This document shows, in pieces, positions 11,249 through 29,145 of a stretch of DNA of 64,000 bases (positions are counted from its first letter, which is position 1; the number at the start of each line of letters is the position of its first letter). A model generated the notes under the pieces. It did no database searches and was not told the DNA's origin. It saw only the letters and a program-made list of their open reading frames with translations. This DNA is from Alphaproteobacteria bacterium (lineage in GTDB: Bacteria > Pseudomonadota > Alphaproteobacteria > CALKHQ01). The translations under genes and the position numbers were made by a program. The DNA lies in the NCBI GenBank assembly GCA_041396705.1, contig JAWKYB010000003.1:28985-92984 (forward strand), given 5' to 3'.

Positions 11249-12259
11249 TCAGTTGGCGCGGAACATGGCGCAGTCGCAGGGATGGTCCAGCATCTGCTGC
11301 AGCTCGCCGTCAAGGTGGTGCAGCGTGATCGAGGCGCCGGCCATTTCCAGCGAGGTGCAGTAGGGCCCGACCCAGGTGGCGTAGACCTCGACGCCGATGT
11401 CGTCGAGCCGCTGCTTCACCCGCCGGTTCATGATGTAGAGCTCCATCAGCGAGGTGGAGCCGAGCGAGTTGACCAGCACCGCCACCCGGTCGCCGCGCGA
11501 CGGGCTCATCTCGCCGAGGATGGCGTCGAGCATGGTGTCGCTGATCGAATCGGCGCTGGTCAGCTTGCCGCGGGCGATGCCCGGCTCGCCGTGGATGCCC
11601 ATGCCGATCTCCATCTCGTCCGGGCCGATCTCGAAATTCGGCTTGCGGGTCTGCGGCAGCGAGCAGGGGCCGAGCGCGACGCCCATGGTGTAGGTCTGCG
11701 CATTGGCCTTGCGGGCGACGCGCTCGCATTCGTCGAAGTCCATCATCATGTCGCAGGCCGCACCGGCGGCCTTGAAGATGAAGAAGTTGCCGGCGACGCC
11801 GCGCCGGTCGGCGATGCGGTCGCGCGGGGCGGAGGCGACGTCGTCGGTCGACAGCACCGTGCGCACCGCGATGTCGTCCATCGCCGCCATCTCGGCGGCC
11901 ATGTCGAAGTTCATCACGTCGCCGGCGTAGTTGCCGTACATGAACAGCACGCCCGCACCGCCGCTGACCGCCTTGGCGCATTCGAGGATCGGGTCGGGCG
12001 GCGGCGACGCGAACACGTTGCCGATGGCGGCCGCATCGGCGAGACCGCGGCCGACATAGCCGAGGAAGGTCGGCTCGTGGCCGGACCCGCCGCCGATGAC
12101 CAGGCCGACCTTGCCCGGCCGCGGCCCGTCGACCGCGATCACCGAGCGCGGGCTGCCGTCGACCTGGCGCAGGTGGCGCGGATGGGCGGCGACGATGCCC
12201 TCCAGCATCTCCTCGATGACCCGGTCCGGGCCGTTCATGATTTTCTTGGTTTCAGCCAA
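11249..12259 (-). CDS. dhaK: Dihydroxyacetone kinase subunit DhaK, about 336 aa.
   Basis: KKIMNGPDRVIEEMLEGIVAAHP aligns with the E. coli DhaK N-terminus KKLINDVQDVLDEQLAGLAKAHP. The start is taken as a TTG preceded by GGGGGAGG. An alternative ATG lies at 12238. Confidence 0.8.
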   Translation of the reverse strand: MAETKKIMNGPDRVIEEMLEGIVAAHPRHLRQVDGSPRSVIAVDGPRPGKVGLVIGGGSGHEPTFLGYVGRGLADAAAIGNVFASPPPDPILECAKAVSGGAGVLFMYGNYAGDVMNFDMAAEMAAMDDIAVRTVLSTDDVASAPRDRIADRRGVAGNFFIFKAAGAACDMMMDFDECERVARKANAQTYTMGVALGPCSLPQTRKPNFEIGPDEMEIGMGIHGEPGIARGKLTSADSISDTMLDAILGEMSPSRGDRVAVLVNSLGSTSLMELYIMNRRVKQRLDDIGVEVYATWVGPYCTSLEMAGASITLHHLDGELQQMLDHPCDCAMFRAN

Positions 12260-12422
12260 ATGGTCCTCCCCCCGCCGCCGTGCGGCAGCCTTCGATCCGC
12301 GCTTGCGCCGGATGCGAAACATCGCCGATGCGCGCACGGATGTCATGCCCCAGTTCGCCAATCCGCGCGCGAATGCTAAACACACCGGGCGGCACCGGGC
12401 CGCGGCGCGAGGGCAAGGGGAC

Positions 12423-13934
12423 ATGGCGGACTATCTGCTGGGCATCGACAGCGGGCTGACCGTCACCAAGGCGGTGCTGTTCGACTCGGGCGGACGGGTC
12501 GTCGCCGTCGGCCGGCGCGCGGTGCCGCGCATCCAGCCACGTGCGCGCCATGTCGAGCGCGACATGGCCGCACTGTGGCGCGAATCCGCGGCGGCGATCC
12601 GCGATGCGATCGCCCAGGCCGGCGTGGCGCCGGGCGCGGTCGCCGCGATCGGCGTCACCGGCCATGGCGACGGCCTCTATCTGCTCGGCGACGATCTGGC
12701 GCCGCTGGGCAATGCCATCGTCTCGCTCGACACCCGCGCGGCCGAGGTGCTGGACGGCTGGCGGGCCGACGGCACCATGGCGGCGGCGCTGCGGGCGACC
12801 GGGCAGCAGCCCTATGCGGCGGCGCCGGCGGCGCTGCTGGCCTGGCTGCGGCGGCACGAGCCGGAGCGCTACGGCCGCATCCGCTGGGTGCTGTCGTGCA
12901 AGGATTGGCTGCGCTTCTGCCTGGCCGGTGCGATCGCGACCGACCTGACCGAAGCCAGCGTCTCGTTCACCGACTATCGCAGCCAGACTTACAGCGACGA
13001 GGCCTTCGCCCTGTACGGGCTGCCGGCGATGGCACGTGCGACGCCTGAGATGCTGGCGCCGGCGGCGGTCGCCGGGCAGGTGACGGCGGCCGCGGCGGCA
13101 ATGACGGGCCTTGCCGCAGGCACGCCGGTGGTCGCCGGCTTGCACGACGTCACCGCGTCGGCGATCGGCTCCGGTGTCGCCGAGACCGGCCGGCTGTCGA
13201 TCGTCGCCGGCACCTTCAGCATCAACCAGGTCTTCTCCGACCGGCCGCAGCCGTCGACGGAATGGTACTGCCGCAGCGGCTTTGCCCGCAGCCTGTGGCT
13301 GAACATGGCGATCTCGCCGGCCTCCAGCGCCAACATCGACTGGATGGTGCGGACGCTGTGCCCCGACGCGGTCGCGCGCGCCGCGGCGGAGGGCGGCACT
13401 GCCTTCGACCACCTGGAGCCGGAGATCGCGGCGGCATTCGCCGGCGACAGCACCGTCGTCTACCACCCGTTCCTCTATGGCTCGCCGCACGGCGACGACG
13501 CCACCGCCGGCTTTCTCGGCGTGCAGGGCTGGCACGACCGCGGCCACCTGATCCGGGCCCTGTACGAGGGCGTGGTGTTCAACCATCGCACCCATGTGGA
13601 TGCGCTGCGCAGCGCCTTTCCGATGACCTCGGCCCGGCTTTGCGGCGGCGGCGCGCGCAGCTCGCGGCTGTGCCAGCTGTTCGCCGACACGCTGGGACTC
13701 GACATCGAGGTGGTGGATGCGGAGGAGACCGGCGCGCTCGGCGCCGCGCTGTGCGCCGCCGTGGGCGTCGGGCGTTACGGGTCGCTGGCCGAGGCATCCG
13801 CGGCCGCGGTGAAGCTGCAGCGCCGCTACCGCAGCGACCCGGCGCGCGCGGCCGATCTGGACGCCCGCTATGCCCGCTATCGCGGCTCGATCGACGCCGT
13901 GGCGCCGATCTGGAAAAGCCTGCGCGGGCAATAG
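12423..13934 (+). CDS. FGGY-family carbohydrate (pentulose/polyol) kinase, 503 aa.
   Basis: MADYLLGIDSGLTVTKAVLFD is the typical FGGY N-terminus. The second domain carries GGGARS. The gene is divergent from dhaK. Confidence 0.8.
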   Translation: MADYLLGIDSGLTVTKAVLFDSGGRVVAVGRRAVPRIQPRARHVERDMAALWRESAAAIRDAIAQAGVAPGAVAAIGVTGHGDGLYLLGDDLAPLGNAIVSLDTRAAEVLDGWRADGTMAAALRATGQQPYAAAPAALLAWLRRHEPERYGRIRWVLSCKDWLRFCLAGAIATDLTEASVSFTDYRSQTYSDEAFALYGLPAMARATPEMLAPAAVAGQVTAAAAAMTGLAAGTPVVAGLHDVTASAIGSGVAETGRLSIVAGTFSINQVFSDRPQPSTEWYCRSGFARSLWLNMAISPASSANIDWMVRTLCPDAVARAAAEGGTAFDHLEPEIAAAFAGDSTVVYHPFLYGSPHGDDATAGFLGVQGWHDRGHLIRALYEGVVFNHRTHVDALRSAFPMTSARLCGGGARSSRLCQLFADTLGLDIEVVDAEETGALGAALCAAVGVGRYGSLAEASAAAVKLQRRYRSDPARAADLDARYARYRGSIDAVAPIWKSLRGQ

Positions 13935-13943
13935 GCGGTGGCC

Positions 13944-15674
13944 ATGCCGGAGACAGGCGAGACGGGCGCGGCCCGGCGGGCGCGGTTGCTGGCGGCGGCG
14001 CGGGCGCGCGGCCGCTTTCCTGTGGTGATCGTCGGCGCCGGCATCAATGGCCTCGGCACCTTTCGCGACCTCTGCCTGCAGGGAGTCGACTGCCTGATCG
14101 TCGACCGCGGCGACTATTGCTCCGGCACCAGCGCGGCGCCGTCGCGGATGATCCATGGCGGCCTGAAGTACCTGGAGACCGGCGAGTTCCGGCTGGTGGC
14201 GGAATCGGTGCGCGAGCGCAATCGGCTGCTGCGCAACGCCCCGCACCTGGTCCGGCCGCTGGAGATGGTGATCCCGCTGCCGCGTCGGTTCGGCGGCGAG
14301 CTGGCCTCGGCGCTGCGCTTCCTGGGGTTGAAGACGAAGATGCGCCGGCGCGGCAAGCTGATCATCGAGGCCGGGCTGACCGCCTACGACTTCTTCGGCC
14401 GCAAGACCCGGGTGATGCCGCCGCATCGCAGCATCTCGCGCGCCGAGCTCTATGCCACGCTGCCGGATCTGGCCGAGGGCATGATCGGCGGCAGCTCGTA
14501 TTTCGATGCCCAGATCGCGATTCCGGAGCGGCTGGGGGTGGAACTGGCGCTGGACGGGATGGCGGCCAATCCGGCCAGCGTCGCGCTGAACCACGTTGCA
14601 GTGGAGGGCCGCGACGGTACCGCATTGCGGCTGGTCGACCGGATCGGCGGCGACGCCTTCACCGTCCAACCCGACCTCGTGATCAACGCGGCCGGGCCGT
14701 GGATCGACCGCACCAACCGGGCGATGGCGGCCGAAAGCACCCTGATCGGCGGCACCAAGGGCTCGCACCTGCTGCTCGACCTGCCGGCGCTGCGCGACGA
14801 ACTCGGCGACCGCATGGTCTATTTCGATCCCGGCGACGGCCGGCTGCTGCTGGTCGCGCAGCTCGAGGGCCGGGTGCTGCTGGGGTCGACCGACATCCCG
14901 GCCGACGACCCGGACGCCGCGGTCTGCGGCGACGACGAAATCGACTACATGCTGGACGGGCTGCGCGCCGTGTTCCCGCGAATCGGCGCCACCCGTCGGC
15001 ACATCGTCTTCACCTATTGCGGGGTGCGCCCGCTGCCGCGCGGCGACAGCAGCGACCCCGGCGCGATCAGCCGCGACCATTCGATCGCGGTGGCCGAGCC
15101 AGCAGGCGACCGCAGCTTCCCGATCCTGTCGCTGGTCGGCGGCAAGTGGACCACGTTCCGCGCCTTCGCAGAACAGACCGCCGACATGGTCCTCGCGCGG
15201 CTCGGCGCCCCGCGGCGCACGGGCACCCTGGAGCTGGCCATCGGCGGCGGTCACGGGCTTTCCAACCGCGCCGAGGACTGGTCGCGGCTGCACGCCGAGG
15301 TCGCGGAGCGGCTGGGCGGAGACGGCACGCGCGCCTGGGCGCTGGTCCGGCGCTTCGGCGCGCGGTCGCTTGAGGCCGTGCCCTATTGCCGTGGAAGCGC
15401 CGACCCGTTGACCACGCTGCCCGGGATCGGCCGCGGCGAGATCGCGTTCATGGCGGAAACGGAGCAGGTCGAGCACATCGCCGACCTGGCGCTGCGGCGG
15501 ACGTCGATCGCGCTCGCCGGGCACTTGACAAGCGCGGCGGTGCGGGAACTCGCCGAAGTCGTCGGCGAGCTGCGCGGCTGGGACGCGGCGCGGCGGGACG
15601 CCGAGGCCGAGGGCCTGGCCGAGGCGATGCTGCGGCGTCACCGCATCGACATCGCGACCGGTCGGCTGGTATAG
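13944..15674 (+). CDS. glpD: FAD-dependent glycerol-3-phosphate dehydrogenase (GlpD/GlpA-like).
   Basis: FPVVIVGAGINGLGTFRDLCLQGVDCLIVDRGDYCSGTSAAPSRMIHGGLKYLE is the hallmark GlpD N-terminus. Confidence 0.85.
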   Translation: MPETGETGAARRARLLAAARARGRFPVVIVGAGINGLGTFRDLCLQGVDCLIVDRGDYCSGTSAAPSRMIHGGLKYLETGEFRLVAESVRERNRLLRNAPHLVRPLEMVIPLPRRFGGELASALRFLGLKTKMRRRGKLIIEAGLTAYDFFGRKTRVMPPHRSISRAELYATLPDLAEGMIGGSSYFDAQIAIPERLGVELALDGMAANPASVALNHVAVEGRDGTALRLVDRIGGDAFTVQPDLVINAAGPWIDRTNRAMAAESTLIGGTKGSHLLLDLPALRDELGDRMVYFDPGDGRLLLVAQLEGRVLLGSTDIPADDPDAAVCGDDEIDYMLDGLRAVFPRIGATRRHIVFTYCGVRPLPRGDSSDPGAISRDHSIAVAEPAGDRSFPILSLVGGKWTTFRAFAEQTADMVLARLGAPRRTGTLELAIGGGHGLSNRAEDWSRLHAEVAERLGGDGTRAWALVRRFGARSLEAVPYCRGSADPLTTLPGIGRGEIAFMAETEQVEHIADLALRRTSIALAGHLTSAAVRELAEVVGELRGWDAARRDAEAEGLAEAMLRRHRIDIATGRLV

Positions 15675-15686
15675 CGCGGCACACGA

Positions 15687-15703
15687 GCGCGGCCGGCCGC
15701 GCG
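15687..15703 (+). terminator. GC-rich perfect palindrome (CGCGGCCGGCCGCG) immediately after the glpD stop. It may be an attenuator or terminator hairpin. No U-tract follows.
   Basis: The palindrome is seen in the sequence. In a high-GC genome, absence of a T-run is common. Confidence 0.25.
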
Positions 15704-15763
15704 AAACTTGGCGAGTGGCGCAGGCGGCTGCGTCGCTCCGACATCCCAGGCAGGGAGGGCGAG

Positions 15764-16525
15764 GTGGACGGACGCTTCTGGGTCGGCACCAGCTGGAAGA
15801 TGAACAAGACGCTGGCCGAGGCCGAGGCCTTCGCCGATGCGCTGCTGCGCGCGCCGCGACCCGACGATCCGTCGCTGGTCCGCTTCGTGATCCCGCCGTT
15901 CACCGCGGTGCGCGAGGTCAAGCGCCGGCTGGCCGGCAGCGACGTGCTGGTCGGAGCCCAGACCATGCACTGGGACGACTCCGGTGCGTGGACCGGCGAG
16001 ATCTCGCCGGTGATGCTGCGCGACTGCGGCGCCGACCTGGTCGAACTCGGCCACAGCGAACGGCGCACCCACTTCGGCGAGACCGACGAAGCCATCGGGC
16101 GCAAGGTGGCCGCGGCCCTGCGCCACGGCCTGGTGCCGCTGGTCTGCATCGGCGAGACCGCGGCCGAGAAGGACCGGGGCGCGACGGCGTCCGTGCTGGA
16201 GCGCCAGGTGCACGGCGCGCTGGCCGGCGTGGACGCCCTGGCAGCAGGGACGGTGCTGCTGGCCTATGAACCGGTGTGGGCGATCGGCGCCGGCGGCGTG
16301 CCGGCGTCGCCCGACTACGCGCAGGCCCAGCACGCGCTGATCAGGCGGATCGCCGCCGAGGCGTGCGGTGCCGCGCTGCCGGTCCTCTACGGCGGCAGCG
16401 TCACCCTGGAGAATTGCGCCGCGCTGGCGGCACGGCCGGCGATCGACGGCCTGTTCGTCGGCCGCGCGGCCTGGGACGCGGAAGGCTATCTGGCGATCGT
16501 CGACCGGGCGGCCGCCGCGCGCTGA
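15764..16525 (+). CDS. tpiA: Triose-phosphate isomerase.
   Basis: A GTG start is preceded by GGGAGGG. FWVGTSWKMNKT aligns with E. coli LVMGNWKLNGSR. The motifs LGHSERR, CIGE and AYEPVWAIGAG are present. Confidence 0.85.
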   Translation: MDGRFWVGTSWKMNKTLAEAEAFADALLRAPRPDDPSLVRFVIPPFTAVREVKRRLAGSDVLVGAQTMHWDDSGAWTGEISPVMLRDCGADLVELGHSERRTHFGETDEAIGRKVAAALRHGLVPLVCIGETAAEKDRGATASVLERQVHGALAGVDALAAGTVLLAYEPVWAIGAGGVPASPDYAQAQHALIRRIAAEACGAALPVLYGGSVTLENCAALAARPAIDGLFVGRAAWDAEGYLAIVDRAAAAR

Positions 16526-17579: not shown

Positions 17580-18359
<780 letters not shown>

Positions 18360-19796: not shown

Positions 19797-20708
19797 TCAG
19801 GCGTACTCGACCGGGAAGCCGGTCCGCGGCGGCGGCACGTCGGCGCCGAACCACTTCTTGAACGAAGCCTGGTAGCTGAGGAAATCGACTCCGGTCATCG
19901 CCTCGTGCAGCACCGAGTTGACGAAGTTCAGCCAGACCTGATCGCCGGGTTTGACCGCGGCGGCGTAGGAGTTCGGCATCCAGCCATAGCCCGAATCGAC
20001 ATAGCGGTCCGGGAACTGGGCAAGCAGCCAGCCGATGGTCGACTGGTCCAGCGCCGCCGCGTGGGCGCGGCCGGAGTTGAGCGCCTGGATTTCGGCGTCG
20101 ACGCTCTCATACTGGTCGACCTTGGCATCGGGCAGCGCCAGACGGATCCAGTCCTCGATGAACACGTTCTGCAGCGCGGAGACGGTGATGTCGGCGCCGC
20201 CGGCCTTGAGCTGGTCGTAGGTCTGGATGTCCTCGCCCTTCATGAGCATGAGGCCGACGCCTTCGCGGTAGTACGGAATGGTGAACTCGACCTGCTGGGC
20301 GCGCCCCGCCGTCACCGTCATGAACTGGAAGATCACGTCGACCTTGTCGGTGGCCAGGTTCGGGATGCGGGCGTCGGAGGCGCCGATCACGAACTCCACT
20401 TTCTGGTCGTCGTCGAACAGGCCCTTGGCCAGCAGCCGGGCCATGTCGATGTCCATGCCCTGCAGGCCGCCCGCCGCGTCCTCGAAATGCCAGGGCGGGT
20501 TGGTGCTGCCGGTGCCGACGATCACGTGGCCGCGCTCGAGCACCGCCTGCAGCCGGCCGCCGGCCGTCTGGGCCGCTGCCTTGCGGGCGCTGACCCCGAG
20601 CCCGGCCGCACCGGCGATCGCGGCGGCGCCCGCCACGCCCAGCGACGACAAGGTCAGCATGTCGCGCCTGTTGACGCCGTCTCGGTCACGCTCTGGCTTT
20701 TCGGTCAT
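19797..20708 (-). CDS. Amino-acid ABC transporter substrate-binding protein with a Tat signal.
   Basis: MTEKPERDRDGVNRRDMLTLSSLGVAGAAAIAGAAG is a twin-arginine signal. The mature part has the SBP family 3 fold. Confidence 0.8.
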   Translation of the reverse strand: MTEKPERDRDGVNRRDMLTLSSLGVAGAAAIAGAAGLGVSARKAAAQTAGGRLQAVLERGHVIVGTGSTNPPWHFEDAAGGLQGMDIDMARLLAKGLFDDDQKVEFVIGASDARIPNLATDKVDVIFQFMTVTAGRAQQVEFTIPYYREGVGLMLMKGEDIQTYDQLKAGGADITVSALQNVFIEDWIRLALPDAKVDQYESVDAEIQALNSGRAHAAALDQSTIGWLLAQFPDRYVDSGYGWMPNSYAAAVKPGDQVWLNFVNSVLHEAMTGVDFLSYQASFKKWFGADVPPPRTGFPVEYA

Positions 20709-21344
20709 GGCTGAACCTCCCCTGTCATGCCATTCGCCGCCATGGCCGGCGGCCATCGCCGACAATGCACCGGGCCGCAGCACGCGGCAAGCGCTGCCCG
20801 AGCGGGCCGCACCGGCCGCCGCAGCGCATCGGCCGGAACCCGGTCGCAATGCAGCACTGCGCGCGCGGGACCGCGTCGAGGAAAACCGCGCAATGCTCAA
20901 AATGGATGACCGGCGCGAATACTACCCGATCGGGTAGTTTATCGGTTAACTACGTTGCGGCGTCAGATTGCGCGTGTGGAATGCCACATTTTCACTGCTC
21001 ACATTCGTGTGACATTCGCCTAAAGAAACTGTCATTACGATCTGATAAGGTGTAACACAGCGACGGGGGATTTCGGTTAGCATCCTGACCGCTGGCACGG
21101 TGTCCCGCCCGCGCAAACCGTTGAAATGACGGTATATGCGGGGCGCGGACGCATGATGCACGGTAGCGGAGACGAGCCGGATACCGGGGCAGGGTTCGCA
21201 CATTTCGCGCCCTGCCGAGCCACTGCGAAAGGAGGTGCCATCGCGAGGGCAGTCACGTTCATAAGTACGCCTAAATTGGTCGGTACCGCTGTCGGCGGTG
21301 CCAATTGGCATTGATCGTTCGTTCCCTGGGGGGGGGTACACGCA
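20709..21344. promoter_or_regulatory. 636 bp intergenic region upstream of the ABC operon (leftward) and of the LuxR gene (rightward).
   Basis: An AT-rich patch at 20940-21060 carries the inverted repeat TGTGGaatgCCACA (20975-20988) and direct repeats ACATTCG at 21001 and 21012, plus related ACATTTT and TCATTACG. Confidence 0.4.
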
Positions 21345-22196
21345 ATGCGACAGTTAGTCGTTCTGGAGCCGAGCAGGCTCGTCCGCGAGGGTATCTCGCA
21401 TCTGTTGGCCGAACACGGCTATGCGGTCGTCGAACAGACCGCCGTCAACGATCCGGACCAGGATCCGGTATCCGACGACAGCATCGATCTCGTCCTGAGC
21501 GAGCTGCCCGGTCCGCGCTACGACATGACCGAGTGGCTGAAGCGAATCGCGGCCTTCTATCCGAAGGCCAGGATCGTGCTGTTGACCGGGCGCTGCGACG
21601 ATCCGGACACGTTGCGCGAGGCGCTGGCTTGCGGCGCCTTCGGCTATATCGACAAGGATCTGTCTGCCGACGCGGTATGCGCCACCATCGACGCGGTGCT
21701 GCACGGGCAGATCGTGTATCCGCGCGAGCTGCGCGACTGCCTGGTCGGCGACGGCCGGGCACGGGCAGGGCGGGCGGCGCCTGCGGTCCGCGTTGCGGTC
21801 GGCGAATCGGTGCCGGCCGTGCGCATCGCGGCGGTCGGCAACGTCGTCGACCTGCGCCAGCCGAACGGCACGGCCGTGCATGCCGGTCCTGTGGCAGCCG
21901 AGGCGGCGGCACCGCGGGTGCCGGCGCCGTCGAAACCCGCGTTGGCAGGCGCGGGCAGGTTGCAGCAGTTCGGGCTGTCGCACCGCGAGGACGAGATCCT
22001 GCGTCATGTGGCGCGCGGCCACGCCAACAAGATCATCGCAAACGAGCTGAACATCAGCGAAGCGACGGTGAAGTCCCATCTGAAGAGCCTGCTGCGTAAG
22101 CTCAACTTCACCAACCGCACCCAGGCCGCGATCTGGGCGGTGAGCCAATATGGCAGCGCCGCCGGCGGCATGGATCCCGGTGCGCGCACCGCGTGA
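21345..22196 (+). CDS. LuxR/GerE-family transcriptional regulator with an atypical (aspartate-less) receiver domain.
   Basis: The N-terminus has receiver-like topology but VVLEPS replaces the acidic DD pocket, and DLVLSELPGP lacks the phospho-acceptor Asp. The C-terminal HTH is LSHREDEILRHVARGHANKIIANELNISEATVKSHLKSLLRKLNFTNRTQAAIWA. Confidence 0.75.
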   Translation: MRQLVVLEPSRLVREGISHLLAEHGYAVVEQTAVNDPDQDPVSDDSIDLVLSELPGPRYDMTEWLKRIAAFYPKARIVLLTGRCDDPDTLREALACGAFGYIDKDLSADAVCATIDAVLHGQIVYPRELRDCLVGDGRARAGRAAPAVRVAVGESVPAVRIAAVGNVVDLRQPNGTAVHAGPVAAEAAAPRVPAPSKPALAGAGRLQQFGLSHREDEILRHVARGHANKIIANELNISEATVKSHLKSLLRKLNFTNRTQAAIWAVSQYGSAAGGMDPGARTA

Positions 22197-22345
22197 ACCG
22201 GTCCGGGCCCAGCACCCGGGCGCACGAATCCGAACCGGCCGGACGGGGCCCTTACTGGTTGCCGTCCGGCCGGCGGAGGACGCGGGACATGCAGCGATCC
22301 CGCGTGTGGCGTCGGCCGGCGCCGTGCGCCGGCCTGCGGTCCGGG

Positions 22346-22855
22346 CTAGCGCGACTCGTCGGCCGGGCCGATCTGCAGCACCGCGGCCTGCTGCACCCAG
22401 GCGTTGACCGGCGAGGGCTGGTGGCCGCGCAGGATCCAGCCCTGTGCCGGCACCGGCAGGCCGGAGGCCATCGCGGTCCATGCGTCGATCGAGGCGGCCG
22501 GGTTGGGAATCATGCCGACGCCGATCGAGCCGGTTTCCGCCAGCGCATGGTAGTTCCAGCCGCGCAGGCTGCGGCCGCCGGCGCCGAGAATGGTCGAGGT
22601 GCGCGAGCGGACCACGGCCAGGCCGTTGGCGCCGCGCTGCACGTCGACCAGCGCGCCGCTGGAATCGCGCAGGAAGAACTCCGGCCGGTTGCCGGTCAGC
22701 TGCTCGTCGATGATGGCCTCGCGGTAGCCCGCGCTCATCCCGACCGACCCGCCGCCGCGGCTGAAGTTGAACGGCTCGTTGAACAGCTGGGCCTGCGCGG
22801 GCGCGACCAGCGCGCCGGCCGCCAATGCGATGCCGGCGACAAGGACCTTGAGCAT
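22346..22855 (-). CDS. Secreted protein, 169 aa, with signal peptide MLKVLVAGIALAAGALVAPAQA and a CsgF-like mature N-terminus (paralog A).
   Basis: Strong RBS: AAAGGAG, 7 nt, ATG. The mature protein starts QLFNEPFNFSRGGG. It has curlin-like SxxxxxQxGxxNxxA segments. Confidence 0.6.
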   Translation of the reverse strand: MLKVLVAGIALAAGALVAPAQAQLFNEPFNFSRGGGSVGMSAGYREAIIDEQLTGNRPEFFLRDSSGALVDVQRGANGLAVVRSRTSTILGAGGRSLRGWNYHALAETGSIGVGMIPNPAASIDAWTAMASGLPVPAQGWILRGHQPSPVNAWVQQAAVLQIGPADESR

Positions 22856-23452
22856 GGGGGTACTCCTTTGGTGTGCAATCAGCTCCGGGCTTTGCCGGTT
22901 CCCCCATAGGTATTCAACCAAAGGGGGAGGTTCAAGGAAAATGCAGATCGCAGACCGGCAGGTAATGCGTTCAAAGTGTTAGTGTTTTTATTCTACCGCG
23001 CCACCGGCGAATCCGCGAAGCGCTGAGGAATCAAGGCCCGCCGCCTGATGTGGACGCGCTGCGGCCGAGCGGATTCTCTCACATGAAAAATTCTTACCGC
23101 GGCCGCGGCCCTGCAGCCGGGCGCACCGCGACGGACCCGGATTCGCCGGCCGCGGTGCCCGACCGGCTCCTCGGCCCGTCGGAGGGAGTCATCCCTTGGC
23201 ATGAATGCGGCGATCAGCCTTGAGGGCTAGTCAGCAGCGAGGTCATCTTTTGTAGTACAGATCCGGGTGCATGCCGGATCATCCCTTGCGATTAGTACGT
23301 TATCGAAATTGTACAAACTGTCATGATTGCTATGATAGAAAACGAACACAAGAAAACGGCGAATTTTCCTGGTGTTCCCTGGGTCTTGGTGGGAATTCGC
23401 TCTCACACTGCATGTCGAATATCACGCGACTCAATGCGTGAGGAGAGGTCCG
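22856..23452. promoter_or_regulatory. 597 bp divergent intergenic region between the CsgF-like gene (leftward) and the CsgG-family gene (rightward), with strongly AT-rich patches.
   Basis: Positions 22960-23000 and 23220-23400 are AT-rich in a roughly 70% GC background. Likely promoters and regulator-binding sites. Confidence 0.45.
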
Positions 23453-24280
23453 ATGCGATTTGGATTGAAGATTGTTGGTCTCGTTGGCCTGGGCCTGGTC
23501 GTTGCCGGCTGCGCGCCGCGGGCGATCTATGGCGATAACGGCGTTCAGCCGCAGTACAGCTTTCCGGTGACCAACAACGACACGCCCTACAGCGCCTGCC
23601 TGCGCAACCTGGCGGCGCTGCCCGGCAACAACCTGCCGGTCATCGCGGTCGGCGAGGTCTCCGACAAGACCGGCCAGATCAACTACGAGGAAAACGGCAA
23701 TGCGCTGAGCCAGGGCGCGGCCGAGATGATGACCAGCGCGCTGTTCCTGAGCGGCAAGGCCAATCTGGTCGAGCGCTTCGACCTGCGCGTGCCGCTGGCC
23801 GAGGTGTCGATGGCGGAGCAGGGCCTGCTCAATCGCGGCATCGACAGCTATCGCGGCCAGATCCCGGGCAGCGACTTCATCATCCTGGGGGCGCTGACCG
23901 AGCTCAACTACAACATCACCAGTGACGGTGCCGGCCTGTGGATCATGGGCATGGGCGCCGGTGCAAGGACAGTCGTAATCAACGTGGCGTTGGATGCGCG
24001 GGTGGTCAACTCGCGCAACTTCACCGTTGTTTACGCGAAGTCACTTCAGAAGCAGGTATATGGCTTCGAAGTGGAGGCCAATGTGTTCCGTTTCTTTGGC
24101 AACACCTTGGTCGAGTTTGACGCCGGTTCGGTGCGGAACGAACCGCTCCAGATCGCCGTCCGCTCCGTCGTCGAGATGTTCGTGTACGGCATGATGACGG
24201 AGGCGTTCGGGCTGCCCACCACGCCTGAGTGCGAGCTGGTGTCGCTCGAATATCCGTACACGTTGCAAACGGAGGACTAA
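23453..24280 (+). CDS. CsgG/HfaB-family outer-membrane lipoprotein secretion channel, 275 aa.
   Basis: The lipobox is LVVAGC. Blocks align with E. coli CsgG: VGEVSDKTGQ / VYNIQDETGQ, GFEVEANVFRF / SYEVQAGVFRF and SVRNEPLQIAVRSVVE / YTSNEPVMLCLMSAIE. The RBS is AGGAGAGG. Confidence 0.85.
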   Translation: MRFGLKIVGLVGLGLVVAGCAPRAIYGDNGVQPQYSFPVTNNDTPYSACLRNLAALPGNNLPVIAVGEVSDKTGQINYEENGNALSQGAAEMMTSALFLSGKANLVERFDLRVPLAEVSMAEQGLLNRGIDSYRGQIPGSDFIILGALTELNYNITSDGAGLWIMGMGAGARTVVINVALDARVVNSRNFTVVYAKSLQKQVYGFEVEANVFRFFGNTLVEFDAGSVRNEPLQIAVRSVVEMFVYGMMTEAFGLPTTPECELVSLEYPYTLQTED

Positions 24281-24284
24281 GTCA

Positions 24285-25034
24285 ATGCAGCGTAAGCATC
24301 TGTTGGCCGCGGCGAGCGTGATCACGCTCGCCACGGGCCTGGCGGCGCCGTCCGCCCAGGCTTTCGATAGGGTCTGGTGGGACTGGAACCTCGATGTCGA
24401 CACGAAGGTCGACGTCAGGGTCGACGTCGACATCAACGTCGATCCCAAGGGCGCGGTGATCTCCGAGACCGACCAGTACTTCAAGGGCTCGCAGGAAGCG
24501 ACCGCGAAGATCGGCGACGTCTATGTCGATCCGAAGGGCTATCACCTGGACGGTGCCACCGACCTCGGCGAGGTCAACAACGTGGCGGCCGCGCTCGGCA
24601 ACTCGAACGCGATCACCTCGGACTTCTCCGTGCAGTCCGACGTCGACCAGGATGCCATCGGCACCGCCTGGTACGGCGCCGACTTCGAGGCGACCGCGAA
24701 AGTCTATGACATCGACAATGCGTCGGTCAGCAACGTCGCACAGGCGATCGCGAACTCGAACTCGATCACCGTCGACCCGCTGCGCGAGCATGGCTGGTAC
24801 CACAGCAGCTCCGACGACGCGCTGATCATCAGCAATGTCGAGCAGTCGGCCTATGCCAACGGCAGCGCCTACGCCTCGGTCTACGACGTCACCATCCGTG
24901 GCTTCGGCGACCTCGGCTCCGGTGACAACGAGCTGAACCGGGCTCTGGTCACCAACTCGGCGATCGCCGCCGGCAACGTGAACAACATCACCCTGGTGAA
25001 CGGCGCCATCGCCTTCCCCGATCAGGACAACTGA
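24285..25034 (+). CDS. Secreted curlin-like repeat protein, 249 aa. It is the candidate amyloid or cargo subunit for the CsgG-family channel.
   Basis: The signal peptide ends AQA. Four or more degenerate repeats SNVAQAIANSNSIT, NNVAAALGNSNAIT, TNSAIAAGNVNNIT and SNVEQSAYANGSAY resemble the NxAxxxQ curlin half-repeat. The gene starts 5 nt after the CsgG stop. Confidence 0.55.
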   Translation: MQRKHLLAAASVITLATGLAAPSAQAFDRVWWDWNLDVDTKVDVRVDVDINVDPKGAVISETDQYFKGSQEATAKIGDVYVDPKGYHLDGATDLGEVNNVAAALGNSNAITSDFSVQSDVDQDAIGTAWYGADFEATAKVYDIDNASVSNVAQAIANSNSITVDPLREHGWYHSSSDDALIISNVEQSAYANGSAYASVYDVTIRGFGDLGSGDNELNRALVTNSAIAAGNVNNITLVNGAIAFPDQDN

Positions 25035-25147
25035 TCGCAGGGCTGTTGCTCGCAACGCAAGGGCAGGGGCGGCGTTCGCGCCGCCCCCGTCCGCCAAGAC
25101 AGGGAATCGCGCTCCCGACCGCGCCGACGGCGCAGGGAGCGAACGCA

Positions 25148-25582
25148 ATGGGGGTAATGATGACTGCACATGCGAAGACGCGGGGCCTGACCGCCGTGAC
25201 GGCGGTTGCCGTTCTCGCCGCGAGCGCCCTGTGGGCCGCGCCGGCCTCGGCCCAGATGTTCCGCGAGCCGTTCTCGTTCGGCGCGCGCAGCTCGGCCAGC
25301 CTGGCGATCTTCATGCGTCAGCGCGACGACGCGCTCAGCGCGTCCTCGTCCGGCGTCGGGATCGGCAGCGGCACCTCGCAGGCGCTGGTCTGCGGCAGCA
25401 GCGGCGGCACCACCGCGTCGACTGCGGCCGGCAACATCACCTGCGTGCTCGCCGGCAACAACACCAACGTCGTGGTGAACAGCCACCAGGACTCGACCGG
25501 CGACCAGAATGCCGATGCCAACACGCACCAGACGGCGGCGGAGACCATCGGCGACATCCTGAACGGCGAGCCGAACGGCTAG
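25148..25582 (+). CDS. Secreted protein, 144 aa, with a CsgF-like mature N-terminus (paralog B).
   Basis: RBS: GGGAG, 8 nt, ATG. The signal peptide ends ASA. The mature protein starts QMFREPFSFGARSS and is Gly/Ser/Thr-rich with 2 Cys. Confidence 0.55.
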   Translation: MGVMMTAHAKTRGLTAVTAVAVLAASALWAAPASAQMFREPFSFGARSSASLAIFMRQRDDALSASSSGVGIGSGTSQALVCGSSGGTTASTAAGNITCVLAGNNTNVVVNSHQDSTGDQNADANTHQTAAETIGDILNGEPNG

Positions 25583-25777
25583 CGGTCGTACGCTCGCGGC
25601 CCGCGGCTCGGCGCCGCAGGCAGCATTCGGGTCAGTCCGGCGTCGCGCACGGCACCGCAGGGTGCGGGGGCAGATGGGCGGCAGCGCGGCAATCGGCGCT
25701 GCCGGCGACGACCGGCCGGGCCCGGTACGCAAAGCCGAACCGGGATCGCATGCCCGGAGCACCGGAGGAGGAACCAG

Positions 25778-26173
25778 ATGCGCCAGATCGTCATCCTGTC
25801 CATGCTGCCGCTGCTGGCGGGCTGCGGCCTGCCGCCGGCGGTCGCCATCGCGTCCTATGCGGTCGACGGCGTGCTGCTGGCCGCAACCGGCAAGACCACC
25901 AAGGACCATGCGCTGTCGGTCGCCATGCAGCAGGACTGCAACATGCTTCACGTCATCGCCGGCGAGTCGATCTGCCAGGACTACGAGCCGACCCAGCGTG
26001 CGGCGATGGCGATGGCGTCGAGCGGGCCGGGCGAAGAGGCGCTGACCACCACGTCCGACGGGCGGATCATCCGGGTGGCGGCGCAGCCGACGCCGTCGCT
26101 CGACGGCGGCCTGATCGCGGCGGCGCCGCGTGCCGGCCAGGCTGCCGCCGGCGATGCGGCCGCCGCGCACTAG
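25778..26173 (+). CDS. Small lipoprotein, 131 aa, last gene of the cluster.
   Basis: RBS: GGAGGAGG, 6 nt, ATG. The lipobox is LLAGC. Two further Cys are present. Confidence 0.55.
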   Translation: MRQIVILSMLPLLAGCGLPPAVAIASYAVDGVLLAATGKTTKDHALSVAMQQDCNMLHVIAGESICQDYEPTQRAAMAMASSGPGEEALTTTSDGRIIRVAAQPTPSLDGGLIAAAPRAGQAAAGDAAAAH

Positions 26174-26211
26174 GCGCAGGCAAAGCGAACCGAGCTGGCC
26201 GGGCGGCAAGT

Positions 26212-26586
26212 ATGGAACACAACACGAGAGCGCGGCCGGGACCGTCGGGCGAGGAGCCCCGCCGGTCGCCGGCGCCGGAGAGAGGGGCAATGGGCGCGGG
26301 CGAGGGATCCCGGGCCGAGACGGGGCGCCACCGGCGCTTCACGCCGGAAGAGATCGTCAAGATGCTGCGCGAGGCCGATGTCCGGATCAGCCACGGCGAG
26401 AGGGTCGGCGCCATCTGCGCCGACTTCGGCGTCTCGGAGCAGAGCTACTACCGCTGGCGCCGTCGCTATGGCGGCCTGCGCATCGACCAGGCCCGCCGGA
26501 TGCGGCAGCTGGAGCGGGAGAATACGAGGCTGCGCAAGCTCGTCGCGCTGCTGACTGCCGACCGCGAGCAGCACGGCGGCGCCTGA
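26212..26586 (+). mobile_element. IS3-family (IS407-like) transposase OrfA remnant. There is no OrfB or DDE domain downstream.
   Basis: RRFTPEEIVKMLREADVRISHGERVGAICADFGVSEQSYYRWRRRYGGL...LERENTRLRKLVALL shows the HTH plus leucine zipper typical of IS3 OrfA. The ORF stops and unrelated genes follow. Confidence 0.7.
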
Positions 26587-26614
26587 CGCCAAGGGCAGCC
26601 GGCCCGGCTCGGCA

Positions 26615-27457
26615 TCAGGACAGGGTGATGACCACCCGCCTGTTCGCCGCGTTGCGCACGCCATCGCCGGTGGCCTCGGCCGGCTCGCGCTCGCCGACGG
26701 CATCCATCTGGATCCGGCCGGCGTCGACGCCACGGGCGACCATCAGGTCGCGCACCGCCTCGGCCCGAGCCCGCGACAGCAGCTGGTTGTATTCCGGCGC
26801 GCCGGCGGTGTCGGTATAGCCGACCACCGCGATCGGCAGCGTCGGGTCGGCCAGCGCGGCGACGACGGCCTGCTCGACCACGGCGCGGCCGGCGGTGGTC
26901 AGCGCGGCGCTGTCGAAATCGAACAGGATCACGAAATTCTGCGCGTCCGCCGCGCCCGGGCCGGTCTGCGGCCGGCCGCCTGCCGCCATCAGGCATTCGT
27001 AGAAGCCGTCGCGGCAGACCATGATACGGGAATCGTCCTGGTCCTCTTCGGCTTCGGCGATCCAGCAGTCGTAAAGCGCCTGGCAATGCGCCACCAGCTC
27101 GGGCTGGAAGTCGCGGCCGCCGCTGTACAGGATCGCGACCAACTGGGCCCGCGCCTCGATCAGTTCCTGGACGACCGACTCCGGGACGGCACGCGCGGCG
27201 ACCTCGTCGGGCAGCACCTGCTGTCCGTAAGACGCCGCCAGGCCCTTCAGCGCGAAATAGTCGGCGTCGGTCCAGTCGCCGCGGCCGGCCTCGAACACCG
27301 CCAGGTCCTGATACTCGTCCATCAGCGCCACGTTGTGGCGATGGCCGACTCGCGGGGTCTCCTGCAGCGTCTCGATATTCCAGGCGGTGGTGCAGCCCGA
27401 AGCCAGCAACACCGCCGCGATGGCAAGCACCAGCGGTTGCCACGATCGGATGGACAT
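26615..27457 (-). CDS. OmpA-family lipoprotein with a peptidoglycan-binding OmpA_C domain.
   Basis: The lipobox is LLASGC. The C-terminus reads FDFDSAAL...VVGYTDTAGAPEYNQLLSRARAEAVRDLMVARGV...NRRVVITL. Confidence 0.8.
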   Translation of the reverse strand: MSIRSWQPLVLAIAAVLLASGCTTAWNIETLQETPRVGHRHNVALMDEYQDLAVFEAGRGDWTDADYFALKGLAASYGQQVLPDEVAARAVPESVVQELIEARAQLVAILYSGGRDFQPELVAHCQALYDCWIAEAEEDQDDSRIMVCRDGFYECLMAAGGRPQTGPGAADAQNFVILFDFDSAALTTAGRAVVEQAVVAALADPTLPIAVVGYTDTAGAPEYNQLLSRARAEAVRDLMVARGVDAGRIQMDAVGEREPAEATGDGVRNAANRRVVITLS

Positions 27458-27539
27458 GGCGCCTCTCCCCCTCTGCGACTGCCGATCCTAGCCTGCCTCT
27501 TTTGTTGCCGTCGGATCAACTCGCAAGGCGTGGCGGGCG

Positions 27540-28352
27540 CTATTGCACGCGGGCGCGCAGCCGGTCGGTCAGGTACTCCATTGCCAGCACGACGACGAAG
27601 ATCGCCAGCATGATCGTCGCGGCGTTGGGGTATTGGAACAGATCGAAGGCGACCTTCAGCTCCTGGCCGATTCCGCCGGCGCCGACCAGCCCCAGCACCA
27701 CCGACGATCGCACCGCCTTCTCAAGCGCGAACAGCCCGGTGTTGATCATCGACGGCGCCGCATCGGGCAGGATGGCACCCGTCAGGATCGACAGGCGGTT
27801 GGCGCCGATCGCCGACAGCGCCAGCTGCGAATCCTTGTCGGCATCCTCCATCGCCTCGGCGAAGAACCGGCCGCAGAAGCCGATGGTGTCGACCACGATG
27901 GTCATCGTGCCCGCCGTCGGACCCAGCCCGACCGCGACCACGAACAGCAGCGCCCAGACCAGGTCCGGCACCGTGCGGAACAGCGAGACCAGTGCCTTGC
28001 CCAGATAGGCGAATGGACCGACCGGCGAGACGGCGCGCGCCGACAGCCAAGCGACGGGGACGCTGGCGGCGACGCCGATCGCCGTGCCGACCACGGCGAT
28101 CTGGAAGGTCTCGACCAGCCGGTCGAGGATGCGCAGCAGAAACCCCTCGTCCAGGTTGGGCGGCAGCATCCGGTCGAGCAGCCGCCCCAGGCTGGGCAGG
28201 CCGTCGGCCAGTCGCTGTGGCGACGGCGCGACATCGCCAAGCGACGCGATCACCACGGCGACCGCAGCCAGCAACAGGGTGAAGGCGACCGGCGACGGCG
28301 CGCGCAGCCGCGGCGGCGCGCCTGGCGTCCGGCCGCGCGGAACCTCAGCCAT
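27540..28352 (-). CDS. phnE: Phosphonate ABC transporter permease PhnE.
   Basis: PhnE-type TM protein. The ATG overlaps the phnC stop within ATGGCTGA. Confidence 0.8.
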   Translation of the reverse strand: MAEVPRGRTPGAPPRLRAPSPVAFTLLLAAVAVVIASLGDVAPSPQRLADGLPSLGRLLDRMLPPNLDEGFLLRILDRLVETFQIAVVGTAIGVAASVPVAWLSARAVSPVGPFAYLGKALVSLFRTVPDLVWALLFVVAVGLGPTAGTMTIVVDTIGFCGRFFAEAMEDADKDSQLALSAIGANRLSILTGAILPDAAPSMINTGLFALEKAVRSSVVLGLVGAGGIGQELKVAFDLFQYPNAATIMLAIFVVVLAMEYLTDRLRARVQ

Positions 28353-29145
28353 TGAAGGTGCCCGCGATCATGCGGTCGGTTACGGCCATGGTCGGGCTGT
28401 CGAAGTGCAGTCGGCCGCCCCGCAACGCCAGCACGCGGTCGGAAAAGGCGAGCGCGTGTTCGATGTCGTGGGTGGTGAACAGCAGCGTGATGCCGTGCGT
28501 CCGCGCCAGGGCCGCGAACAGGTCCATGACCTCGCGGCCGGCCGCCGGGTCGAGGCTCGCGGACGGCTCGTCGGCGATCAGCAGTCGCGGCTGGCGCACG
28601 ATCGCCCGAGCGATCGCCACGCGCTGCTGCTGTCCGCCGGACAGGGTGTCGGCCCGGTGACCCGCCCTGTCGGCAAGGCTGACCGCCTCCAGGGCCGCCA
28701 GCGCGTTGCGGCGCCACGCGTATGGCGCGGTCGTCTGGCAGAAGCCGCGCCAACTGCCCGGCGTGCCGAGCATGCCGTGCACGACGTTGGACAGCACCGA
28801 CCGCCGCCGGACCAGCCCGTGGTGCTGGAACACGAAGCCGGTCTGCCGGCGCAGGCGCGCACGCTGGGCGGATGTCGGCGTCGCGCCGAACCGTTCGCCC
28901 AGGGTCTCGACCGTGCCGCGGGAGATCGGCACCAGGCCGATCAGACATTTCAGCAGCGTCGACTTGCCGGACCCGTTCGGCCCGATCAGGGCGACACGTT
29001 CGCCTGCGCCGATGGTCAGGCAGACATCGCGCAGCACCGGCGCGACGCGCCCATAGGCCTTGTCGAGGTTTGCGGTGCTGACGATCGCGCGGTCCGTGGC
29101 GGTCGGGCCCGGTGCGGGCGGTTCCGCCGGCGTGGACAGGCGCAC
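28345..29145 (-). CDS. phnC: Phosphonate ABC transporter ATP-binding protein PhnC.
   Basis: Walker A GPNGSGKSTL, LSGGQQQRVAIARA and LLIADEPSASLDP are present. The start is a GTG at 29145 or 29157. Confidence 0.8.
   Translation of the reverse strand: MRLSTPAEPPAPGPTATDRAIVSTANLDKAYGRVAPVLRDVCLTIGAGERVALIGPNGSGKSTLLKCLIGLVPISRGTVETLGERFGATPTSAQRARLRRQTGFVFQHHGLVRRRSVLSNVVHGMLGTPGSWRGFCQTTAPYAWRRNALAALEAVSLADRAGHRADTLSGGQQQRVAIARAIVRQPRLLIADEPSASLDPAAGREVMDLFAALARTHGITLLFTTHDIEHALAFSDRVLALRGGRLHFDSPTMAVTDRMIAGTFNG

Follow-up and report, generated by a model that had tools for sequence, protein, structure and literature searches.

An orphan LuxR-type regulator with an aspartate-less pseudo-receiver domain beside a CsgG/HfaB-like gene cluster in an alphaproteobacterium

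A 64,000-nucleotide stretch of alphaproteobacterial DNA (positions 28,985 to 92,984 of contig JAWKYB010000003.1, assembly GCA_041396705.1), referred to here as the window, encodes a 283-residue LuxR/NarL-type pseudo-response regulator on its forward strand at 21345–22196, stop codon included. Structurally the protein belongs to the NarL/FixJ-LuxR class of transcription factors; it is an orphan, and its receiver is an aspartate-less pseudo-receiver. Its gene forms the left boundary of a conserved island in which a CsgG-family gene is found. Both the gene and its pseudo-receiver character are real and were correctly described, along with the position at the island's edge, in a preliminary description drawn from the sequence. 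The explanation that best accommodates our observations, to which we assign a probability of roughly 0.6, is that the protein serves as a phosphorylation-independent, possibly constitutively active regulator of the adjacent CsgG/HfaB-like cluster.

The gene itself is supported by its open reading frame (ORF), its Pfam matches, an identical database protein and its codon composition. The frame is uninterrupted, begins with ATG and spans 283 codons, the longest reading possible, with a G-run resembling a Shine-Dalgarno sequence 8–15 nucleotides 5′ of the start. Guanine plus cytosine (GC) fractions at codon positions 1, 2 and 3 are 0.71, 0.49 and 0.84, matching the neighboring genes and the typical coding pattern of the genome. 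The identical NCBI protein (P0001), from an alphaproteobacterial metagenome-assembled genome, is annotated as a "response regulator transcription factor". Overlapping antisense ORFs, such as 21354–22907 on the reverse strand, were treated as high-GC artefacts. The gene has a 630-nucleotide upstream region of its own, is separated from its convergent neighbor by a hairpin-forming gap of 149 nucleotides and is evidently transcribed alone.

The N-terminal domain (residues 1–125; 21345–21719, forward strand) was delimited by alignment to VraR and NarL, structure prediction, fold comparison and a residue table over homologs. Pfam Response_reg matches residues 6–115 with 37.5 bits, above its gathering cutoff of 30.2. 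Comparison with solved structures by phmmer pairs the segment VVLEPSRLVR with LLVDDHEMVR of VraR/LiaR and LIDDHPMLR of NarL, placing E8 (codon 21366–21368) and P9 (21369–21371) at the two positions of the acidic DD pair, DD1 and DD2. Likewise, DLVLSELPGP pairs with DVILMDLVME of VraR/LiaR and DLILLDLNMP of NarL, which sets E53 (21501–21503) at the phospho-acceptor aspartate, D59 in NarL. The remainder of the receiver's catalytic quintet is present: T81 (21585–21587) at the end of β4 and K104 (21654–21656) at the end of β5 are both kept, as is Y101, the aromatic residue at K−3; through these three the phosphoryl group is normally read out, the tyrosine being that of Y-T coupling. The quintet is thus incomplete at DD2 and substituted at the acceptor, and the loss of both aspartates that the preliminary description had expected from such alignments is borne out. 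Its further statement that the acidic pocket had been lost, with EP standing in for DD, holds only in part, as the metal-binding DD2 aspartate is gone and E8 and E53 both remain acidic.

Structure prediction places these residues in a recognizable receiver. An AlphaFold2 model built from a 27-sequence alignment contains a confident (βα)5 domain, with β1 at residues 3–7, β3 at 49–53, β4 at 76–81 and β5 at 98–103 and most blocks above 90 in predicted local distance difference test (pLDDT) score. E53 lies at the C-terminal end of β3, where the phospho-acceptor sits. The model departs from the usual fold in helix α2, which is nearly absent, residues 30–48 instead forming an acidic loop, and in an altered start to α3. 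Foldseek comparison with the Protein Data Bank returned LiaR, VraR, ChrA, spr1814, VpsT, RcsB, FixJ and NarL among the top matches, with target-normalized template modeling scores of 0.73–0.80 for the receivers. The receiver-like topology proposed at the outset is therefore upheld by the Pfam match, the model and the fold matches alike. The autoinducer-binding domain of quorum-sensing LuxR proteins and LuxR solos (PF03472) gave no Pfam match, the N-terminal domain being a receiver, and the stretch from 13.9 to 31.3 kb of the window codes for no HisKA or HATPase protein; any partner histidine kinase would lie more than about 7 kb away.

A receiver stripped of catalytic residues might be taken for a pseudogene domain in decay. 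We rejected this reading, the domain being conserved and confidently folded: mean identity to the window protein within its close clade is 46% for the receiver and 69% for the DNA-binding domain, against 13% for the linker between them, and the receiver is thus constrained rather than decaying.

The regulator fits squarely within a recognized bacterial class, the pseudo-receiver or aspartate-less response regulators exemplified by ChxR, HP1043, GlnR, RamR and Rem. It shares with them a PF00072 match, missing catalytic residues, a non-acidic DD2 and glutamate at the acceptor ("D") position; it is likewise an orphan with a remodeled α2/α3 region, and activity independent of a kinase is presumed. 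Pseudo-receivers account for about 6% of bacterial receivers, and how they are activated is for the most part poorly understood; some 80% of them have a non-acidic DD2, and α2, the γ-turn and α3 are the most altered elements (PMC12632262). Among aspartate-less receivers glutamate is the commonest residue at "D", a known partial phosphomimic that often engages the conserved threonine and lysine (PMC12632262). Where the window regulator stands apart is in its output: most characterized pseudo-receivers belong to the OmpR/PhoB family or carry other effector domains, whereas this protein combines a NarL/LuxR-type output with a linker of about 60 residues and a link to a CsgG/HfaB-like cluster.

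Two comparisons sharpen this assignment. The engineered PhoB variant D10A/D53E (PDB 2jb9), which surfaces in both the sequence and the fold matches and is described as constitutively active, unites loss of the DD2 aspartate with an aspartate-to-glutamate change at the acceptor, the same classes of change found naturally as P9 and E53. That variant is, however, an engineered receiver of the OmpR/PhoB family, about 28% identical to the window protein where the receivers align (Foldseek), and for the window regulator we infer constitutive activity. NarL, VraR and LiaR, for their part, are the best matches over both domains in sequence and structure; the recognition helix reads TVKSHLK in the window protein and TVKVHVK in NarL, and a K-D motif after β5 is common to both. 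Unlike the window protein, these regulators have intact DD, D, T and K residues, short linkers and cognate kinases. Among NCBIfam response-regulator models NarL scores best, but its 93.4 bits fall short of the cutoff of 250; all others (FixJ, UvrY and so on) are lower, and no equivalog can therefore be assigned.

Beyond the receiver, helix α6 (residues 127–142) leads into a disordered linker rich in Ala, Pro, Val and Gly (143–201), the two together spanning 21723–21947 and recognized from the model and from clade identity; pLDDT falls below 50 throughout residues 143–201. The linker measures 60–125 residues in the full-length members of the glutamate-bearing clade that were listed, a distinguishing mark of that clade, whereas aspartate-retaining relatives total just 220–230 residues. 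The C-terminal domain is a GerE/LuxR-type helix-turn-helix (HTH) at residues 206–273 (21960–22163), defined by Pfam GerE (residues 211–265, E=1.6e-19), by alignment to the HTH domains of NarL, VraR and DosR, and by a four-helix prediction at pLDDT 96–98. Its signature KSLLRKLxxxNRTQAAIWA is kept throughout the whole family.

The regulator has few close relatives. Only about a dozen exceeded 37% identity in a word-indexed search covering 5.8 billion proteins, and an exhaustive phmmer search of receiver residues 1–142 against 1.84 billion cluster representatives returned 11 proteins, the query included, at E≤1e-22. Ten of these form its clade, and the eleventh, P0123, is a multi-receiver protein of 26% identity that falls outside it; two further members at weaker E-values bring the clade to about 12 clusters. 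With about 12 clade clusters and 4,293 matches at E≤1e-3 among the 1.84 billion representatives, the receiver is both rare and divergent. Within this close clade glutamate occupies the acceptor position in 11 of 12 members, threonine is kept in 10 and lysine in 8, and DD2 is Pro, Ser or Thr; in the window regulator's own subclade the E, T, K, Y pattern is invariant. D48 is nearly invariant across the clade, and the T+1 position is bulky or charged (K, V, D or E) in many of its members.

The wider family supplies an evolutionary context. In a scan of one genome per species, which yielded 80 relatives, there was one close relative (L009, 43% identity) and many at 30–36% in Azospirillaceae, Acetobacteraceae, Niveispirillum, Skermanella, Oceanibaculum, Pelagibius and others. 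A metagenome scan was uninformative for the close clade, its relatives reaching at most 33% identity over the full alignment and none being linked to the cluster among the matches listed. Every sampled member of this Rhodospirillales-type LuxR family lacks an acidic DD2, carrying S, A, P, T, R or Q in its place, and most keep the acceptor aspartate: written in the order DD1, DD2, acceptor, Thr/Ser and Lys, the patterns D-S-D-T-K and D-A-D-T-K dominate. In a rough neighbor-joining tree, without support values and rooted on canonical NarL-type neighbors (D-D-D-S-K), the glutamate clade is monophyletic and nested inside the aspartate-retaining family. On this tree glutamate seems to have arisen at the acceptor on at least four separate occasions—in the window clade, L018, L074 and L010—and loss of DD2 appears to have preceded its repeated replacement of aspartate. 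Such an order would be expected had phosphotransfer already been abandoned while a negative charge at the site was still useful.

One side observation concerns Azospirillum, in many genomes of which a DD2-less family member (D-S/A-D-T-K) lies 0.3–2.4 kb upstream of a canonical NarL-type regulator of 213–221 residues (D-D-D-S-K), as in L039 (10001–10669 and 12457–13074) and L080 (10001–10678 and 10953–11585). FlcA of Azospirillum is a 215-residue LuxR-type flocculation regulator (PMC4264754, PMC4618731). The notion that the wider family contains FlcA was considered and dropped; the canonical neighbors are the better fit to its length, and by length and family they may correspond to it.

What ties the regulator to its neighborhood is conserved gene order. 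The arrangement of regulator, reverse-strand P170, CsgG-like gene, P249 and P145, followed in some by P131, recurs in at least nine genomes spanning at least four subclades, with regulator identities of 30–50%. Beyond the window the adjacency is found in L001–L006, a single population with two tandem glutamate-type regulators ahead of P170; in L173–L175, another population, again with two in tandem; in L009, with a single regulator and a duplicated CsgG-like gene; and in L008, where the regulator is followed only by P170 on the reverse strand and the contig ends before any CsgG-like gene. It extends to the more distant subclades represented by L018 (Pelagibius), L033, L051 and L076 (Oceanibaculum pacificum), whose acceptor residues are E, D, D and D, respectively. 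The preliminary description had named consistent linkage of the orthologs to unrelated operons as evidence that would count against it; what recurs in these genomes is adjacency to the cluster. Genes on the regulator's other side differ among loci—an amino-acid ATP-binding cassette (ABC) transporter, a 310-residue unknown protein with Crp, or OmpA—which suggests that the cluster is its conserved partner. Linkage is nonetheless frequent rather than universal, and the family has clearly been duplicated and dispersed.

Several of these loci carry variations in their own right. The tandem regulators precede the cluster at 8007–9902 in L001 and 1805–3778 in L173 with the patterns E-P-E-T-K and G-S-E-T-N, where the window has a single gene; by analogy with the heterodimer of BldM and WhiI (PMC4125116), such a pair suggests that tandem pseudo-response regulators may exert heterodimeric control. 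In L009, the two CsgG/HfaB-like genes (12109–13113 and 15203–15985) are 69% and 74% identical to that of the window and flank an extra 416-residue ORF that the window does not have. In L033 (10001–19400), the CsgG-like cluster lies between two family regulators, one of G-R-D-N-K type and one of G-G-A-A-S type.

Given a CsgG-family neighbor, comparison with the curli regulator CsgD is an obvious one, and the preliminary description had proposed a CsgD-like role. The likeness is genuine in outline: both are orphan LuxR/FixJ-type proteins with a receiver-like N-terminus and a GerE HTH, both genes adjoin a CsgG-containing secretion cluster and have a long intergenic region in front of them, and CsgD is active when unphosphorylated, as the window regulator presumably is as well. 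The differences are more telling. Against the NCBIfam CsgD model (NF007505) the protein scores 62.7 bits where the cutoff is 250, and HTH residues 208–266 alone align; the domain that had been called GerE/CsgD-type, from a string that occurs verbatim in the protein, is thus of the GerE/LuxR type without belonging to the CsgD family. CsgD keeps its acceptor aspartate, D59, phosphorylation of which inactivates the protein (PMC13304067), whereas the window regulator has glutamate at the equivalent position. The csgD gene heads csgDEFG, which runs divergently from csgBAC; the window regulator is monocistronic and convergent with its neighbor. Contrary to the divergent placement beside structural genes first supposed, it lies tail to tail with the P170 gene, 149 nucleotides apart.

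Nor does the island resemble a canonical curli setting. Curlin repeats (PF07012), CsgE and CsgF gave no Pfam match among the neighboring proteins even at E≤10, and the lipoprotein stands nearer to HfaB than to CsgG; we rejected the curli reading, and with it this part of the preliminary description, on these grounds. The likeness of the regulator to CsgD is one of analogy, not homology, and a CsgD-like role, plausible from conserved synteny, should be read in that sense only. Closer relatives are found in the Caulobacter hfaABD(E) locus: the window lipoprotein is closest to HfaB (NF037935) and P145 is weakly like HfaA (NF037934), with the differences that gene order is not the same and that the window cluster gave no HfaD match. 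We know of no LuxR-type regulator that forms part of the Caulobacter hfa locus. The island belongs to the broader CsgG family as an Hfa-like locus and not as a curli one, and its genes are Hfa-like rather than Hfa orthologs, since the best HfaB and HfaA scores lie below the equivalog cutoffs. HfaB exports amyloid-like anchor proteins (PMC6707917; bioRxiv 10.1101/2022.07.20.500906). In keeping with this, Pfam CsgG is reported to match many non-curli paralogs, and Alphaproteobacteria are reported to be without csgD, csgC and csgE (PMC3521004).

From these observations a mechanism can be proposed. With neither DD2 nor an aspartate acceptor, no Mg2+-dependent phosphotransfer is expected, and the regulator very probably cannot be phosphorylated at the canonical site. 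The phosphorylation-independent signaling that had been put forward as fact is, on this footing, a sound deduction from the missing residues rather than a demonstrated property. E53, acting with T81 and K104, may bias the receiver toward the "on" conformation, as in PhoB D10A/D53E, although we would put its role as an activating phosphomimic a little short of an even bet. The regulator would then form DNA-binding dimers with no kinase involved. Its output would depend on its level of expression, in keeping with its long upstream region, and possibly also on a paralog heterodimer or a ligand at the remodeled α2/α3 face. The likeliest targets would be the divergent promoters in the 594 nucleotides that separate P170 from the CsgG-like operon; the regulator might act on its own promoter too. 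In essence, the regulator would be an on/off switch for a set of secreted surface-anchor or amyloid-like adhesin proteins. That it controls the adjacent cluster we consider probable.

A number of points weigh against this reading, and a rival explanation is that the regulator is functionally unrelated to the cluster, the adjacency being historical, and controls genes elsewhere, possibly jointly with paralogs. Four close paralogs or orthologs have unrelated surroundings, among them P0011 (L007), P0002 (L169) and P0007 (L170), and a second paralog in the window's own genome, P0005, lies outside the 64-kb window. No cluster was detectable near the large Azospirillum-type subfamily, near the 80 more distant metagenomic relatives (among the matches listed) or near most of the 80 genome relatives. 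In L031 (10001–14100) and L042 (4004–8200), both regulators are kept, separated by only about 3.4 kb, and no cluster can be detected; loss or replacement of the cluster would account for this. The window regulator runs convergently toward the first gene of the cluster and forms no classic divergon, no shared operator was found, and the footprinting candidates described below are weak, none of them recurring across genomes. Linked regulators in L033, L051 and L076 keep the acceptor aspartate, so glutamate is not required for association with the cluster, and the equation of glutamate with a phosphomimic has been tested and disproved in some pseudo-receivers (PMC12632262). A different protein, the small HTH protein encoded at 26212–26586, could be the direct regulator of the cluster. 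Set against a historical accident, however, is a gene order kept in at least nine genomes and at least four subclades at 30–50% regulator identity while the other side varies. Adjacency this persistent is usually functional, and we regard an unrelated function as unlikely.

Two further explanations accept a working regulator and differ over how its receiver is used. The pseudo-receiver may be a sensor of a ligand or second messenger, as VpsT is for cyclic di-GMP, or a partner module, as in the BldM-WhiI heterodimer or the Rem-MirA inhibitor pair, rather than being locked on. The conversion of α2 to an acidic loop and the altered start of α3 fall in the very regions that ligand-binding pseudo-receivers use (PMC12632262), and the tandem pairs of L001 and L173, together with the paralog in the window's genome, would suit a partner module. 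VpsT, moreover, is a structural neighbor (Foldseek E about 1e-9) that likewise unites a pseudo-receiver, a sixth helix and a GerE HTH and that controls matrix genes. Sequence similarity to VpsT is confined to the HTH, however, and VpsT-type proteins bind cyclic di-GMP through a W[F/L/M][T/S]R motif at the base of the extra helix α6. The regulator has no such motif: its only two tryptophans are W63, in the WLKR of α3, and W264, in IWAV, and the third position of WLKR varies across the clade (K, E, D, A or Q). With no ligand pocket or partner identified, we give this explanation little weight. Phosphorylation at a non-canonical site, either Ser/Thr/Tyr as in plant pseudo-response regulators or with D48 or D60 as acceptor and E53 irrelevant, strikes us as highly improbable. 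Conservation of T81, K104 and Y101 and near-invariance of D48 might be read in its favor, as might plant pseudo-response regulators with glutamate at "D" that are phosphorylated elsewhere (PMC12632262). Yet D48 is the common D−5 position at the start of β3 and not in the active site, DD2 is proline, the often bulky or charged T+1 residue would block the site, and no kinase gene lies nearby. Control of the adjacent cluster by a regulator that needs no phosphorylation thus remains our preferred reading. Its boldest extension is that a lineage-restricted clade of LuxR-type pseudo-response regulators, naturally "locked on" by the pair of changes engineered into PhoB D10A/D53E and bearing a disordered tether of 60–125 residues, would be the dedicated master switch of an Hfa-like, CsgG-family system for surface-anchor or amyloid export outside Caulobacterales, a convergent, non-homologous counterpart of CsgD in a class reported to have no csgD, tuned by paralog heterodimers rather than a kinase; this we offer as speculation, with the odds well against it.

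The intergenic regions are where an operator would be sought. The region upstream of the regulator (20715–21344, 630 nucleotides) must hold its own promoter and has a GC fraction of about 0.60, as against about 0.70; a partly conserved block of it aligns in L001. The divergent region between P170 and the CsgG-like operon (22859–23452, 594 nucleotides), the presumed regulatory target, has a GC fraction of 0.53–0.60. In L001 and L009 the counterparts of both regions are comparably long. Both long, low-GC regions recall heavily regulated biofilm promoters, although no element was identified in them, and no sigma-70 consensus promoter was found in 20600–23600.

One candidate is a perfect 18-bp palindrome, ACTACCCGATCGGGTAGT, at 20921–20938, which is unique in the window and was matched in none of 100 shuffles. 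It lies 407 nucleotides upstream of the regulator's ATG and 207 nucleotides upstream of the divergent gene for an ABC substrate-binding protein, and its TACCC/GGGTA arms resemble NarL-type half-sites. An imperfect version, CCATCCGATCGGAGGG, occupies the aligned position in L001 and is not seen in the other related loci; the core CCGATCGG is positionally common to the window and L001 only. The TACCC..GGGTA pattern does not occur in the target region 22859–23452. That region instead offers a candidate inverted repeat, GAACACAAGAAAA/TTTCCTGGTGTTC, at 23344–23377 and a candidate 10-mer, AAACTGTCAT, at about 23315–23324, which is also found upstream of the regulator at about 21026–21035. A genome-by-genome comparison of 12-mers common to both intergenic regions gave one weak, window-specific candidate, A.AAACTGTCAT.A. 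Three-way alignment of the spacers between P170 and the CsgG-like gene, and likewise of the sequences upstream of the regulator, yielded just short, weakly conserved blocks, and enumeration of inverted repeats over seven linked loci returned GC-rich background only. Downstream of the regulator, the 149-nucleotide gap (22197–22345) folds as RNA at −95.4 kcal/mol (z = −2.6) and contains a GC-rich hairpin with a 12-bp stem, CCGGCCGGACGG / CCGTCCGGCCGG, at 22235–22273. Lying between the convergent regulator and P170 genes, this hairpin, which has no T-tract, is a candidate bidirectional terminator. No Rfam family was matched in 20000–28000.

The island itself opens with P170 (22346–22858, reverse strand), a secreted protein of 170 residues without a Pfam or NCBIfam match, predicted as an ORF and left unassigned to a family, whose gene adjoins the regulator in all linked loci and is divergent from the CsgG-like operon. 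The operon begins with the CsgG-family, HfaB-like outer-membrane lipoprotein (23453–24280, forward strand; 275 residues; Pfam CsgG E=1.5e-30), which is 61–81% identical in linked loci. It scores 170.4 bits against the NCBIfam HfaB model (cutoff 300) and 45 bits against the Escherichia coli-type CsgG model (cutoff 505), both below cutoff. Next come, on the same strand, P249 (24285–25034), a secreted protein of 249 residues rich in Asp, Asn and Val that has no family match in Pfam or NCBIfam and also follows the CsgG-like gene in L001, L009, L018 and L076; P145 (25148–25582, start approximate), a small secreted protein of about 144 residues conserved in L001, L009, L018 and L033, with a weak NCBIfam match to HfaA (22.8 bits, E=9e-5, cutoff 50); and P131 (25778–26173), an ORF for a putative lipoprotein of 131 residues with no family match and 57–64% identity in L001 and L009. 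P170 and P145, otherwise unrelated, share a nine-residue motif, AQ[LM]FxEPFxF, directly after their signal peptides, identical at six of nine positions. Such a motif might direct both proteins to the CsgG/HfaB-like channel as a shared targeting signal, analogous to the N-terminal secretion signal of CsgA.

The cluster ends, on the forward strand, with the small IS3-OrfA-like HTH protein (HTH_Tnp_1; 26212–26586, start approximate), whose NCBIfam transpos_IS3 match of 35 bits covers its N-terminal part only. The protein is encoded once in the window, unaccompanied by a transposase ORF, and it occupies the same place in L001 (13663–14034, an ortholog matched by Pfam HTH_Tnp_1) and L009 (about 18038–18277) at 59–68% identity. 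The protein looks like a domesticated transposase HTH and is a second candidate regulator, alternative or additional, of the locus. An OmpA-family lipoprotein of 280 residues (26615–27457, reverse strand; Pfam OmpA E=4e-19) marks the right edge of the island; it holds the same position in L001 and lies on the opposite side of the regulator in L009. To its right are phosphonate ABC transporter and amidohydrolase genes.

That such a protein exists will not surprise a specialist, the pseudo-receiver class being already known, and it opens no long-standing question. What the regulator does provide is a clean natural example of a glutamate-for-aspartate receiver in the NarL/LuxR class. The wider family, in which DD2 has been lost in all members, the aspartate kept in most and glutamate acquired repeatedly, offers a natural comparison for the idea of a built-in phosphomimic. 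Should our reading of its role prove true, the regulator would be the first transcriptional switch to be proposed for the poorly understood CsgG/HfaB-like secretion clusters found in free-living Alphaproteobacteria.

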